From: an uncultured virus (IMG/VR IMGVR_UViG_3300030098_006717)
Taxonomy: Duplodnaviria; Heunggongvirae; Uroviricota; Caudoviricetes
IMG/VR virus record: IMGVR_UViG_3300030098_006717
DNA: 20,000 nucleotides
Direction: 5' to 3' (one strand)
The translations under genes were made by a program, and so were the position numbers. Shown here piece by piece: positions 14,357 to 19,698 of this stretch. Numbering within the stretch: position 1 is the stretch's first letter; every line of letters begins with the position of its first letter. Under the pieces are notes generated by a model. The model did no database searches. It saw nothing but the letters and a program-made list of their open reading frames with translations, and was not told where the DNA came from.

Positions 14357-15445
14357 ATGAAAAAATTACTATCGATACTATTAACAGCAACTATCTTATT
14401 TGCGGAGGAAGGTAGTAATTACTTTGTAGACAACTTTTTAAAGTATTCTACATTTTATACGAGTGTGAGTTTAAATTCACCATTTGTTGCTCAATCACAA
14501 TGGGACGTTGATGTAGAAAACGGGACATTTGTAGAAACAACAAAAGAAAATGAGTTAGCATACAATTTATCAGTTGGTGTTAGGAAATTAGCACGTTTTA
14601 AATATCAGTCAAAAGGTAAAAACTTCTATGATGGTTCAGAAAAGAATTTATCTGATGTAGCTACAATTGGAAATGTAAGTGGTTGGGAGTATTTAGTTAA
14701 GTATTCTACAATCAGAGAATTTGGTGAAGAATTTGTAGATACGGAATCTTGGGTTAGATACTTGGGTGATAATTTTGTAGTTAAAGGTTCATATGCAAAC
14801 TTTGGAAGACAAGGTTTAGAATTTGGACAATTAGATGCAAGATGGAGAAAACCACTTGGTAATAGTTGGAATGTTACATTGGGTGGAAACTTTAGAGGAC
14901 ATCCAGCTTATGGTTTATTTCCATTCAATGATTGGTTAGCTGGTTCTAACGGACAATGGTGGGAATTAGCATATAACTATGGGTATGATGATGAATATTG
15001 GTTTGAAGATTTAAATCAGAATGGCATTCAGGATCCAGGTGAATATGGTAACTACGAGTGGTTTGATGAAAATGGTGAATTGATTGCAGAAACCGATGAT
15101 GAGTTTTATGAATATTATTACGGTGATATAATTAACCTTTACAATGAAGAAGAGATTGATAAGTTAGGTTATCAATGGGAGTCTTCACTTGTTATTGGTG
15201 TGGATTACTATTTATATGATAAACAATATTGGGTTCACGGGTGGGCTTCAATAATACCTTTTAGTAAAGGTTTAACAGATTATGCCTTTAAATATGAATC
15301 TGGTGATATTGACTTTGACATAGGTTTAGTAGCTGGATATAAATTTAACAGAAATATTGGTATCTTTGGTGAAGGAAGATATCTTAAATACTTTGGAATT
15401 GATGCTTACGAATTAAAAGCAGGTATTAATGTAACTATATTTTAG
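14357..15445 (+). CDS. Secreted outer-membrane beta-barrel-like protein
   Basis: Sec signal peptide MKKLLSILLTATILFA, alternating amphipathic aromatic-rich strands, and a C-terminal beta-signal 'YELKAGINVTIF' ending in Phe. AGGAG at 14345-14349. Confidence 0.75.
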   Translation: MKKLLSILLTATILFAEEGSNYFVDNFLKYSTFYTSVSLNSPFVAQSQWDVDVENGTFVETTKENELAYNLSVGVRKLARFKYQSKGKNFYDGSEKNLSDVATIGNVSGWEYLVKYSTIREFGEEFVDTESWVRYLGDNFVVKGSYANFGRQGLEFGQLDARWRKPLGNSWNVTLGGNFRGHPAYGLFPFNDWLAGSNGQWWELAYNYGYDDEYWFEDLNQNGIQDPGEYGNYEWFDENGELIAETDDEFYEYYYGDIINLYNEEEIDKLGYQWESSLVIGVDYYLYDKQYWVHGWASIIPFSKGLTDYAFKYESGDIDFDIGLVAGYKFNRNIGIFGEGRYLKYFGIDAYELKAGINVTIF

Positions 15446-15568
15446 ATGCCAAATAAAAAAGCCAAACAGAGAAAACAAGAAAGAAGAAAAAAAAATGAAT
15501 ATCTTAAAAGACATGGTAGAACTCGTAAACAAATAAAGAGATTTAAGAGGAGAAAGAAAAATGGATAA
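15446..15568 (+). CDS. 40-aa highly basic peptide MPNKKAKQRKQERRKKNEYLKRHGRTRKQIKRFKRRKKNG
   Basis: The ATG directly follows the upstream TAG and the ORF fills the gap. 21 of 40 residues are K/R. Not in the ORF track. Confidence 0.7.
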   Translation: MPNKKAKQRKQERRKKNEYLKRHGRTRKQIKRFKRRKKNG

Positions 15569-15620
15569 ATGTAATTGTGAATGTGAATGTTGTAAGAGTT
15601 GTGACAAATGCAAAAAATAG
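15561..15620 (+). CDS. 19-aa metallothionein-like Cys-rich peptide MDKCNCECECCKSCDKCKK
   Basis: GAGGAG at 15547-15552 lies 8 nt before the ATG. The peptide has 7 Cys in CxC/CC/CxxC arrangement and overlaps both neighbours. Confidence 0.55.
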   Translation: MDKCNCECECCKSCDKCKK

Positions 15621-16252
15621 GTGAAATATTAGTTGAAAAGGGTTATGTAACCCAACAACAACTTGAAGGTGTGTTAGCAGTAAAAGGTCCTGATGCTCAA
15701 GTAGGACAAGTTCTTATAGAGTGGGGATTACTTACGCAAGAACAATTGATGGAAGCTTTAAATATACAAGCTCCACCTCCTCCACCTCCTCCACCTCCAC
15801 CAGTTCAACAACAGATACCACAACAACAAATGTATCAACAACCTGTATCTCCACCTCCAAGTGGTGGTCCAGATTTAACAATGGACAATCTACAAACATC
15901 AAAGTTTAGAATTGATTTAAAAACTATGATATTTGTTGGTTCTATGTTGGTATCACTTGTAACTATGTATTTTACATTTATGGGTGAAATGGATGCTAGG
16001 TTCGGAGCACTTGAAAACCAAGATACAGAGTTGATGAATAATATTGATAAAAGACTTACAGAATTAGAAAACAAGTTTACACCGATTGGTGATGGGGTTT
16101 ATTCAGTAGATCCTAATACAACTTGGCCACCATCTCGTGGTGAATATACTATGAAACAGAATATGAATGCAAATAAGATTACTGTTTTGGAAGAAACTAT
16201 AGATAGATTAGAAAAAGAATTAGAAAAGTTAGAAAATAAAATAGATAAGTAG
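15608..16252 (+). CDS. Membrane-anchored protein: N-terminal MshEN-like domain, Pro/Gln linker, single TM helix, C-terminal coiled coil
   Basis: Tandem 24-aa motifs KIGEILVEKGYVTQQQLEGVLAVK and QVGQVLIEWGLLTQEQLMEALNIQ, five residues apart, match RLGxxLLxxGLVxxxxLxxxLxxQ. TM segment 'MIFVGSMLVSLVTMYFTFM'. Heptads 'LEETIDRLEKELEKLENKIDK'. Confidence 0.8.
   Translation: MQKIGEILVEKGYVTQQQLEGVLAVKGPDAQVGQVLIEWGLLTQEQLMEALNIQAPPPPPPPPPPVQQQIPQQQMYQQPVSPPPSGGPDLTMDNLQTSKFRIDLKTMIFVGSMLVSLVTMYFTFMGEMDARFGALENQDTELMNNIDKRLTELENKFTPIGDGVYSVDPNTTWPPSRGEYTMKQNMNANKITVLEETIDRLEKELEKLENKIDK
15773..15802 (+). repeat. CCW trinucleotide run encoding 10 consecutive prolines
   Basis: Sequence is cca cct cct cca cct cct cca cct cca cca. 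Confidence 0.95.
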
Positions 16253-16260
16253 GAGAGGTT

Positions 16261-16647
16261 ATGTTCAAAAAAATAATTATATTTGGAATGTTAGTTACAT
16301 CACTATTTGGTAATGTAAGAGAACTAACTGATGAAAACTTTGATAAGGCTATAAAAAGAGGTATGGTTGTAGTAGAATTTTATGCGAGTTGGAACAAAGC
16401 TAATATAGTGACATTATTAGATGAGTGGGATAACTTTGAAGTTAATAGAGTGTGTAGGTTGGATGTTGAAAAATATGATAAGATAATGACTTCAAATAAT
16501 GTAGTAGTATTACCAACAATAATTTTTTATCTTGATGGTGAAGAAGCGGGAAGACTTCAAGGTAATATGAAGTTTCAATTAGAAACTACAATAAAAGAAC
16601 TTGACAAGATGGTTGAGGAAATTTATAATAAAGATAAGTTCAATTAG
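16261..16647 (+). CDS. Secreted thioredoxin-fold protein without a CxxC active site
   Basis: Signal peptide, then 'ELTDENFDKAI...VVVEFYASWNKAN...RLDVE...VVVLPTIIFYLDGEEAGRLQG', a thioredoxin pattern with WNKAN in place of WCxxC. AGGAG at 16251-16255. Confidence 0.8.
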   Translation: MFKKIIIFGMLVTSLFGNVRELTDENFDKAIKRGMVVVEFYASWNKANIVTLLDEWDNFEVNRVCRLDVEKYDKIMTSNNVVVLPTIIFYLDGEEAGRLQGNMKFQLETTIKELDKMVEEIYNKDKFN

Positions 16648-16656
16648 GAGAGAGTT

Positions 16657-17595
16657 ATGAAAAAGTTATTTAATTTTTTATTTTTAACAATGTTTGTAAT
16701 GTTTGGATTACAATCTTGTGATGATGATGACACAATTGTGGGTGGTGGTATAGATATAGAGCCAGAATTAACAGGTTGTGAAGCAACATCATTTTACGAT
16801 TGGAGTGATTTTACATTTGAAACATCACTTGATGCTGGTGCAACTACTTGGTTAGGATTTGAATTAGATGAAACTACTTTGTTTTCAATTAATTTAAATC
16901 AACCTGGTTTTCATTGTGCAATATTTGAGGGATGTGATGGAGAGTTAGGTTCACCACCACCTTTATATAGTTTTATGTCAAATGGTAATGGACAAGAGGT
17001 TGGTATTGTAACAGAGGGTTCTTATTATTTAGAAATTACAAATACAAGACCTGGTAGATTAGATTTTAATTTTGGTATTAGTTTATCAGATATAGTTTAT
17101 GGATGTCTTAATGATGATGCATTAAATTATAATTCAGATGCAAATGTAGATGATGGTAGTTGTGAATTTAATGATTGTAATACGGATTACTATCAAGAAA
17201 ATTATGGTGAGATGATATTAGATTGTGATGGAAATTGTGCACCTATATCTTGGATAGCTGATGGATATTGTGATGATGGTGAATGGGGAATCTATGATGA
17301 AGAAGGTAATGTAGTTCCAATCAATTTATATTGTGCAGAATTAAATTTTGATGAGGGTGATTGTGAAGCAATTGATGAAGATTGTACACCTGGTTTGATT
17401 GAAGATTGTAACGGAATATGTGCACCTGCCAATTGGTTAGGTGATGGATTCTGTGACGACGGTTCTTATGAGTATAATGGAAATCCAATATTCTTCAACT
17501 GTGAAGAATTAAACAATGATAATGGAGATTGTGATGCACTTGGAAGAACGACACAACAAAGACAATTACCAAACGGGAAAATCAAAATCCAATAA
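16657..17595 (+). CDS. Cys/Asp-rich lipoprotein with LNR(Notch)-like repeats
   Basis: Lipobox LQS-C followed by DDDDT, a 'GCLNDDALNYNSDANVDDGSC' motif, and two 'C..W..DG.CDDG....C...N.D.GDC' repeats. AGGAG at 16646-16650. Confidence 0.8.
   Translation: MKKLFNFLFLTMFVMFGLQSCDDDDTIVGGGIDIEPELTGCEATSFYDWSDFTFETSLDAGATTWLGFELDETTLFSINLNQPGFHCAIFEGCDGELGSPPPLYSFMSNGNGQEVGIVTEGSYYLEITNTRPGRLDFNFGISLSDIVYGCLNDDALNYNSDANVDDGSCEFNDCNTDYYQENYGEMILDCDGNCAPISWIADGYCDDGEWGIYDEEGNVVPINLYCAELNFDEGDCEAIDEDCTPGLIEDCNGICAPANWLGDGFCDDGSYEYNGNPIFFNCEELNNDNGDCDALGRTTQQRQLPNGKIKIQ
17221..17532 (+). repeat. Two LNR-like Cys-rich peptide repeats (17221-17364 and 17404-17532)
   Basis: DCDGNCAPISWIADGYCDDG...LYCAELNFDEGDC aligns with DCNGICAPANWLGDGFCDDG...FNCEELNNDNGDC. 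Confidence 0.85.
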
Positions 17596-17950: not shown

Positions 17951-18280
17951 ATGTCAGAGGAAGTGAAAGAAGTAAAAAATTATCATCCTGCAGATACTAA
18001 TGGTGATGGTAAGGTATCTAAAAAAGAACAAGAAATGTTTTTAGAATTTAAGCGTAAAGAACTTGAAGATGCTGACGCAATGAGAGATGCTCAGCGTAAA
18101 ATGGCGTGGTTTGCTATGTTTGGTATGTTACTATATCCATTTGCAGTAGTAATTGCTAATTGGGTTGGATTAGATCAAGCTTCTAAAATACTTGGTGATA
18201 TGGCGGCAACTTACTTTGTTTCTGTAGCGGCAATTGTAGCAGCTTTCTTTGGAACACAAGCATATTCGAAGAATAAGTAA
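17951..18280 (+). CDS. Holin-like two-TM membrane protein with an N-terminal EF-hand loop
   Basis: Canonical 12-residue loop DTNGDGKVSKKE (17993-18028), two hydrophobic helices and a short basic tail. AGGAG at 17940-17944. Confidence 0.6.
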   Translation: MSEEVKEVKNYHPADTNGDGKVSKKEQEMFLEFKRKELEDADAMRDAQRKMAWFAMFGMLLYPFAVVIANWVGLDQASKILGDMAATYFVSVAAIVAAFFGTQAYSKNK

Positions 18281-18918
18281 TGATAAAATTAAAAAACTTA
18301 TTAGATTTAAATGATATGAAATATTCTGATGAGGTTAAACCTAAACATCAGAAAACTATGAATATGGAAACTAAATTTATACTTGATGTTAAGATTCCAG
18401 AACAACTTCCTCCTGAAAATTCTAGTAATGAAACTAAATTTGAATTAGAATGGTTATTAATAAATAATCAAGATGTAAATGAGGATTTTGTTAAAAAGGG
18501 TGATAATATTGAAAAAGTTTTTGATGATTATATGAAAAAAAATAATTTAAAATATGATAAAAAATATATTCAAAAAATATTAAAAGAATCTTCAAAAACA
18601 ATTTTACAATTAAAATATTATTACAACAGACCAAGACCAAAACAAATAGCAGACTATTATGGTATGAAAGAATTTAAAAATGTTAATTTACCATCAATGA
18701 AATCACCAAGTTATCCAAGTGGACATTCTACTCAAGGACATTTAGTAGCTTTAATACTTTCTCAAAAATATCCAAAACATTATGAAAAATTTAGAAAATT
18801 AGCCAATATGATATCAGCTTCTCGAATGGTAGGTGGAGCTCATTATCCAAGTGATTGTAAATTTGGTGAAAAAGTTGCTATGTATATATCGGGAGGGATA
18901 GTTATAAAATGGACTTAA
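18280..18918 (+). CDS. PAP2-superfamily phosphatase (acid phosphatase / vanadium haloperoxidase-like)
   Basis: All three motifs are present: KYYYNRPRP, SYPSGH and SRMVGGAHYPSD. TAATG overlap with the upstream gene. No signal peptide. Confidence 0.9.
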   Translation: MIKLKNLLDLNDMKYSDEVKPKHQKTMNMETKFILDVKIPEQLPPENSSNETKFELEWLLINNQDVNEDFVKKGDNIEKVFDDYMKKNNLKYDKKYIQKILKESSKTILQLKYYYNRPRPKQIADYYGMKEFKNVNLPSMKSPSYPSGHSTQGHLVALILSQKYPKHYEKFRKLANMISASRMVGGAHYPSDCKFGEKVAMYISGGIVIKWT

Positions 18919-19089: not shown

Positions 19090-19698
19090 GTGAAAATATT
19101 TTTAATATTATTATTAAGTTTAGGTTTATCATCTGAATGGGGGACATCAGTAAGTGTTAGAACACCTAATGATAACACTAAAGAATTAGACTATGAACTA
19201 TCAGTCAAGTTAGAAGATACAGATGGTAAGTTTCAGTATCTACTAAAGAAAGATTGGGAAAGAGAACTTGGTGAAAAGTATGAAGATGATATCATAAAAT
19301 TTCAACATCAAGTTATAGGTCATCTATATTATGGTGTAGATTATGTCAATAAGGAGTCTAAAGACATAGATTATATTACAGGCAATATAGGTGCTACTAT
19401 CGGTTGGTTTAAAGGTGGAATATCATTTAAACAAGTAGATGATAAAGTATCACCATTGTTAAATTTAGCGTTATCAACAAAAGCTGATATAAAAAACCTT
19501 GACAATGAACCAAATATTTCGTATATTATAAGTATATCTGTAAAATCAGATATTAGTGATAACAATATTATTAATGTAAAATCAGAAGTAAAAAAATGGT
19601 TATCTAAAAAGGTTAATTTATTTGGTTTATATAAACATGAATATTATAATGAAAAAGAAGACTTTCAATTTAAAGTTGGTATTGGAGTTAAATTATGA
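19090..19698 (+). CDS. Secreted outer-membrane beta-barrel-like protein
   Basis: GTG start with GGGAG upstream, a short signal peptide, amphipathic strands and a C-terminal strand 'FQFKVGIGVKL'. Confidence 0.65.
   Translation: MKIFLILLLSLGLSSEWGTSVSVRTPNDNTKELDYELSVKLEDTDGKFQYLLKKDWERELGEKYEDDIIKFQHQVIGHLYYGVDYVNKESKDIDYITGNIGATIGWFKGGISFKQVDDKVSPLLNLALSTKADIKNLDNEPNISYIISISVKSDISDNNIINVKSEVKKWLSKKVNLFGLYKHEYYNEKEDFQFKVGIGVKL

Follow-up and report, generated by a model that had tools for sequence, protein, structure and literature searches.

The closest described counterpart of the phage protein reported here is the MshEN_N subdomain of Vibrio cholerae MshE (PDB 5HTL), a four-helix bundle of two 24-residue motifs in which two leucine triads and, at the glycines of the motifs, backbone amides hold the guanines of c-di-GMP; in the available text of that study, the glycines and the leucine clusters contribute most to binding, which glycine substitutions abolish, and changes of R9, D12 or Q32 cost less than fivefold (PMC5013675). 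The GSPII-B domain of Thermus thermophilus PilF (PDB 8PDK) has no arginine at the start of its motifs, and the accessible part of its description reports that lysine or leucine at position 1 gives stronger binding than arginine, that binding persists at 460-950 nM after single Gln-to-Glu changes, and that the N-subdomain binds alone with no need for MshEN_C (PMC11731258). For PilF GSPII-A, the text at hand describes a construct with serine at motif II position 1 and alanine for glycine in which binding is abolished, and full GSPII-A for which a perfect motif is insufficient for binding (PMC12002112). Outside the ATPases, E. coli NfrB is, as far as the partial descriptions go, a membrane protein with a MshEN domain and no ATPase, though it is a host glycosyltransferase. 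Phages have so far been seen to disturb c-di-GMP through host enzymes or to be gated through host receptors: the YfiN-interacting peptides (PMC8085984) and Tip, Aqs1 and Zip (PMC11656802) likewise touch c-di-GMP signalling or pilus motors, but they bind host proteins, and in the available text of these reports none is described as a nucleotide receptor domain. Our literature search, which covered titles and the beginnings of abstracts and had most subscription papers outside its coverage, returned no phage-encoded MshEN domain.

We analysed a window of 20,000 nucleotides from an uncultured virus (IMG/VR IMGVR_UViG_3300030098_006717) that encodes a protein of 214 residues with a MshEN-like head (Table 1). 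While the MshEN domain is known, its setting in a phage envelope module appears to be new. The head resembles MshE MshEN_N in its two 24-residue motifs, four-helix bundle, glycines, triads and last Gln, but has K and Q for the two arginines, K for the first Gln, a four-residue spacer and no basic patch, and the phage-encoded, membrane-anchored protein lacks MshEN_C and the ATPase. It shares the missing motif-start arginines and the K of motif I with PilF GSPII-B, which differs in having leucine at motif II position 1 and both glutamines where the phage head has glutamine and a single glutamine, respectively. Unlike NfrB, the phage protein has no enzyme domain.

Table 1. Features of the window in and around the gene for the 214-residue protein.
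Feature	Position	Strand	Remark
Small MscS-beta-domain membrane protein, 138 residues	13930..14346	+	7/7 window-lineage loci
Exported 362-aa protein, outer-membrane-barrel-like	14357..15445	+	putative, from sequence features
Very basic 40-residue ORF	15446..15568	+	between barrel-like gene and 214-aa gene
19-residue ORF, 7 cysteines, own Shine-Dalgarno	15561..15620	+	overlaps 214-aa gene start
Gene for single-pass membrane protein, 214 aa	15608..16252	+	ORF call and translation
MshEN motif I, K3-K26	15614..15685	+	K for R at position 1, K for Q at position 24
Spacer, G27-A30	15686..15697	+	4 residues vs 5 in MshE
MshEN motif II, Q31-Q54	15698..15769	+	Q for R at position 1
P10 tract and Q/P-rich linker, residues 56-88	15773..15871	+	relatives vary in length
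Single transmembrane helix, residues 107-125	15926..15982	+	sole hydrophobic peak, Kyte-Doolittle 1.89
Predicted periplasmic part: helix, conserved non-helical insert (157-180), terminal coiled coil	15983..16249	+	
Thioredoxin-fold protein, signal-peptide-like N-terminus, no CxxC	16261..16647	+	next gene in 75/75 loci with at least 350 bases downstream (86 loci in all, two of them found via the thioredoxin-fold query)
TTGACA-17-TATAAT perfect site	16601..16629	+	just upstream of lipoprotein-like gene; total site count of the promoter scan at chance level
Acidic Cys-rich lipoprotein-like protein (LQSC)	16657..17595	+	downstream in six other window-lineage loci
Small membrane protein, weak EF-hand match	17951..18280	+	
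PAP2 phosphatase	18280..18918	+	PAP2 genes near the cassette in 9 loci
Second exported protein	19090..19698	+	with the cassette in 4/4 close loci long enough

Most of the anatomy proposed in the initial annotation was borne out, namely two 24-residue MshEN-type motifs beginning KIG and QVG, the first of them ending in K, followed by P10 (residues 56-65), a Q/P-rich linker, one transmembrane helix and a predicted coiled coil, with no ATPase domain matched by Pfam in the 214-residue protein. The two motifs match 20 of 22 consensus positions, whereas 5000 shuffled versions of residues 1-60 average 8.1 matches and reach 13 at most; in this scoring, the sets of accepted letters had been broadened in knowledge of the protein (K at position 1, I/V at 2, Y/F at 11). 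The exception is the supposedly canonical spacing, as K3 and Q31 lie 28 residues apart where R9 and R38 of MshE lie 29 apart. Poly-proline comes after Q54, and the MshEN_C subdomain is absent. K99, R101 and K105 ahead of the transmembrane helix suggest an N-in orientation, and a full-length model of low confidence (pLDDT 54) has long helices at residues 104-156 and 178-213. The start of the gene lacks a Shine-Dalgarno sequence of its own, and the overlapping 19-residue ORF may couple its translation with that of the 214-residue protein. Peptides resembling the 40-residue basic ORF are found in many related loci, often directly after the thioredoxin-fold gene. In a relative from an RNA run, the barrel-like gene runs straight into the 214-aa-type gene, which there has a Shine-Dalgarno sequence. 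A marine RNA library holds a 165-base contig identical to positions 15592-15756, which is no proof of transcription.

That residues 3-54 form a MshEN_N four-helix domain is, in our judgement, close to certain. Searched against the PDB as a single sequence, the protein finds V. cholerae MshE as its best match (E 0.0015); a profile of 41 close relatives reaches PilF at E 1.8e-5 and MshE at E 8e-5, and a profile built on the head alone, in which 30 of the 36 rows come from a sister lineage described below, reaches PilF, PilB and MshE at E 5e-17 to 1.4e-10. A structure model of the head alone (pLDDT 84.8) has MshE and PilF at the top of a Foldseek search (probability 1.00, TM 0.77, E 0.03), and among 48,161 chains of a further structure search its top five matches are all MshEN/GSPII domains with Z of 8.3, 7.7, 7.7, 6.0 and 5.8, against 4.3 for the best unrelated chain. 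The superposition with MshE (Z 8.3) covers 56 residues at an rmsd of 2.1 A, and sequence identity to MshE is 38-40%. Since a Z near 8 is commonplace among small helical folds, the assignment rests on the agreement of sequence and structure, and the profile and fold comparison that the initial annotation had called for came out as a MshEN match on both sides. The C-terminal domain of fumarase/aspartase, proposed by Pfam at E 0.0016, was rejected as the fold of the head (Z 4.3 vs 8.3). PF05157 gives no row at E<=0.1 for the 214-residue protein in the Pfam scan and none for the near-canonical heads of P0151 and P0152 either, so that this Pfam model appears to miss the N-subdomain when it stands alone. 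An unnamed viral model of 90 residues likewise matches the head structurally, and the ESM Atlas returned unnamed viral clusters, with only sub-0.9 leads for the head. Among 19 candidates for longer proteins with the same head, one qualified, a NfrB-like protein at E 0.09, and no donor was found.

By sequence comparison, the head is an optional N-terminal addition on a membrane protein that is widespread in marine phages. Homologues of the 214-residue protein at E<=0.001 make up 1703 of 1853 candidates, and residues 88-214 have 31 matches among 1.84 billion representatives, which include the headless short proteins P0137 and P0138 as well as P0151 and P0152 with their two near-canonical heads. 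A short form aligns with the membrane and coiled-coil part of the window protein at an hhalign probability of 96.6, and many relatives proved headless in the survey that the initial annotation had suggested; its term "stand-alone" is misleading for a domain whose membrane and coiled-coil carrier is tied to thioredoxin-fold and barrel-like genes. The sister lineage, which has the near-canonical head (R/K-LG), comprises 749 matches among 8000 scored candidates. Outside the window lineage, 160 of 207 sequences could be parsed into 68 distinct heads (the other 47 are short forms or truncated), all 68 of which begin each of the two motifs with R or K, with Q (59/68) or K (9/68) at position 24 and a spacer of six residues. 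Window and sister-lineage heads are 25-34% identical and their linkers differ. A single head-bearing clade is rejected by the tree of the membrane and coiled-coil part (AU p 0.0003; 49 rows, with five dropped by the trimming rule and the headless P0124 labelled head-bearing), and both two captures of the head and one capture with losses and recombination would fit.

Counted over the 69 distinct domains among 132 window-lineage sequences, G5, G12, G33, L47, L51 and Q54 are each present in 69/69 and G40 and I4 in 68/69. The head of the window protein keeps the glycines at positions 3 and 10 of both motifs (G5, G12, G33, G40) and both hydrophobic triads (I4/L47/L51 and L19/L23/V32). At position 1, where R, K or L is expected, K3 conforms and Q31 does not; the glutamine at position 24 is kept as Q54 and lost at K26; and the spacer falls short of five residues. 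These changes are themselves widespread in the lineage, with K (54/69) or M (14/69) at motif I position 1, Q31 in 69/69, K26 in 65/69, V32 in 58/69 and a spacer of four (62/69) or three (7/69) residues. The dN/dS of the head is 0.07-0.27 in six pairwise comparisons, two of them between near copies, so that the head is under purifying selection, and its reading as a decayed pseudo-domain was rejected.

The initial annotation had doubted binding because the signature arginines are replaced, and this was overstated for K3: PilF GSPII-B, in which K and L replace both arginines, binds c-di-GMP at 6 nM according to the available text, and the loss of arginine is therefore compatible with binding (PMC11731258). 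The doubt was fair for Q31, as it was for K26. Judging from these residues, we see the chances that the head binds c-di-GMP at cellular levels as evenly divided. Against binding stand Q31, K26, the short spacer, V32, which would shrink one leucine cluster, and the missing basic patch (three basic and seven acidic residues in the head vs about nine and ten in the sister lineage), and together they leave the matter close to balance.

Much of this would also suit a head that has given up the nucleotide and now serves the envelope module through protein interaction or oligomerisation, like the N-terminal domain of XpsE or PilF GSPII-A, which do not bind it. Q31 is fixed, K26, the short spacer and the absent basic patch point the same way, the invariant surface residues K11, Q14, Q16 and W39 (69/69) would fit a new interface, and non-binding members of the fold exist, as the accessible parts of two studies report (PMC5013675; PMC12002112). 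We judge this main rival unlikely all the same, given that the non-binder XpsE, in the text available, has lost pocket glycines and leucines (G11V, G40L, L54H and L58C) of the kind kept here (PMC5013675), that the structural match of the head to binders scores better (Z 8.3, 7.7) than that to XpsE (5.8) or GSPII-A (3.5), and that low divergence of the family inflates every invariance count.

Two further readings grant the head a ligand and assign it another role. The altered second half-site, whose changes are fixed across the lineage, could shift specificity, for example to 3'3'-cGAMP, and let the protein read or absorb an anti-phage alarm signal. MshEN_N does bind cGAMP, though weakly (330 uM in the text at hand; PMC5013675), but guanine is selected via backbone amides at glycines that are both kept here, and no defence-related neighbours were seen, so that we hold this idea to be remote. 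More remote still is a sponge function, by which the protein would draw down the c-di-GMP of the host. With one pocket per chain and no catalytic domain the protein has the makings of a sponge, but a weakened pocket and an anchor in the membrane with a conserved periplasmic half would suit that role poorly, and the module persists in the headless short forms.

The 214-residue protein very probably belongs to a phage envelope module, as gene order and predicted protein features suggest. Its layout, a homologous single-pass coiled-coil protein followed by a CxxC-less thioredoxin and accompanied by a barrel-like gene, recurs among relatives: the barrel-like gene is present in 7/7 window-lineage, 15/42 sister-lineage and 9/28 short-form loci, many of which lie on short contigs, and the 362-residue protein is 29% identical over 409 columns (E 5e-48) to the product of the gene upstream of a short-form relative. 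The MscS-beta-domain gene is tied to the cassette in both head-bearing lineages. In six other window-lineage loci the cassette is preceded by a gene for a zeta-toxin-like kinase (L001:7708-8442 and equivalents), which is absent from this position in the window.

This setting also bears on the proposal that the head-bearing protein interferes with pili or secretion. Phage inhibitors of PilB such as Tip, Aqs1 and Zip set a precedent, and the membrane anchor would bring the protein close to the platform, yet these inhibitors are small peptides that bind PilB or PilZ and not, in the available text, copies of MshEN (PMC11656802). Moreover, the head consists of the N-subdomain only, the remainder of the protein stays conserved along with the partner gene whether or not a head is there, and the gene sits among virion genes. 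We therefore regard pilus or secretion interference as highly unlikely; this idea and that of a decoy, both raised in the initial annotation, gained no support.

The explanation that we prefer, a ligand-reading head on a phage envelope module, falls just short of an even chance in our estimate, whatever its output. The 214-residue protein would be the inner-membrane member, a single-pass coiled coil working with an exported Cys-free thioredoxin-fold protein and a barrel-like protein, and would carry its MshEN_N head in the cytoplasm on a proline-rich tether. The head would bind a single c-di-GMP of the host, with an affinity probably below that of MshE, and its occupancy may alter the clustering of the membrane helices and coiled coils or the hold on the thioredoxin-fold partner, so that the module could act according to the sessile or motile state of the host. 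The least certain step is the output, possibly an envelope control late in infection and most plausibly a delay or release of lysis, which would follow the example of phage T4. There, according to the accessible text, holin T and antiholin RI combine a small cytoplasmic domain, one helix, a periplasmic domain and an exported partner (PMC11413866). The likeness is one of topology only, since T has no MshEN domain and no sequence match to the phage protein, and the endolysin is not near the module. If the other steps hold, lysis control is the likeliest output, though we give it somewhat less than an even chance.

Endolysin genes lie within 5 kb in 9/28 short-form loci; among loci with 5 kb of flank, the counts are 0/17 head-bearing vs 6/17 short-form loci (Fisher p 0.018), in a comparison based on four endolysin seeds and on loci that are not independent. 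A Rz-like gene is found 7-9 kb downstream in four close loci. In G004, a related genome of 169 kb, the cassette gene lies at 112.5 kb, some 42 kb from the GH108 endolysin gene at 154.2 kb, and a Rz-like gene is found at 119.6 kb; the G004 proteins that were scanned include no recognisable holin. In two sister-lineage loci, a 3-TM holin is encoded separately at a distance of 2 kb. With the endolysin far off and separate Rz-like and holin genes, the module is unlikely to be the spanin in these myoviruses. A holin PHROG match of the 214-residue protein (E 0.0019) is confined to the coiled coil.

In the sister lineage, an H-NOX gene abuts the start of the head-bearing gene in 20/42 loci, with upstream sequence available in 38 of the 42 (L018:339-890 and 19 more loci, where the phage H-NOX gene overlaps that start; its 90% cluster has 227 members). 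The encoded domain (PF07700, E 7e-44) looks intact, as do its proximal histidine and YxSxR, which we take to be the H-NOX motif. The idea of a sensor, with its predicted binding by the head, gains from this near-canonical motif beside an H-NOX gene. In bacteria, hnox genes usually sit beside those for kinases or c-di-GMP enzymes, according to the available part of a report (PMC8738867). Neither H-NOX nor GGDEF was found in 5/5 window-lineage genomes, one of them 95% complete, neither an M15 peptidase nor a second MshEN in five related genomes, and neither EAL nor HD-GYP in a Pfam scan of 138 G004 proteins that left out the largest ORFs.

Taken to its full extent, the preferred reading would mean that a c-di-GMP receptor became attached to the cytoplasmic end of a trans-envelope module in large marine myoviruses, perhaps on two occasions, and that a lytic phage reads the biofilm messenger directly, in the sister lineage along with nitric oxide via H-NOX, to time the opening or protection of the envelope; the arginine-less head would then widen the binding motif or read another cyclic dinucleotide. 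This composite picture is distinctly unlikely as a whole. If true, a lytic virus would condition an envelope step on the attached or free-living state of its host. With 1703 homologues in one lineage and 749 in the other, the family is abundant, and it offers a natural series that runs from headless forms through a near-canonical head, alone or with H-NOX, to the arginine-less head, so that constructs of 55 residues could directly test binding rules and module function.

Upstream of the cassette, four genes have their matches in the baseplate region of G004, which is 95% complete and encodes a T4-like capsid, portal, terminase, tail tube and bS21. Its capsid protein is ca. 50% identical to those of Microcystis phage Mel-JY01 and the Flavobacterium immuto phages. 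GenBank phages hold no full match for the 214-residue protein, P0151 or the barrel-like protein. Among GTDB genomes there is one match, a contig (L017) in a Pelagibacter bin that shares the genes and gene order of phage locus L002; it is probably a binned phage contig, and Pelagibacter was rejected as a clue to the host. Phages with bS21 have predicted Bacteroidetes hosts in the available text of one study (PMC9723584), but a Shine-Dalgarno core precedes 12 of 15 window genes against a background of 6%, and such sequences are not read by Bacteroidia ribosomes, as far as partial sources state. The host may belong to the Marinisomatota, which is no more than our guess. In G004, the gene for ribosomal protein S21 (L110:14279-14515) lies beside the capsid genes, as does that for a volactin-family actin (L110:11963-13018, E 2e-75).
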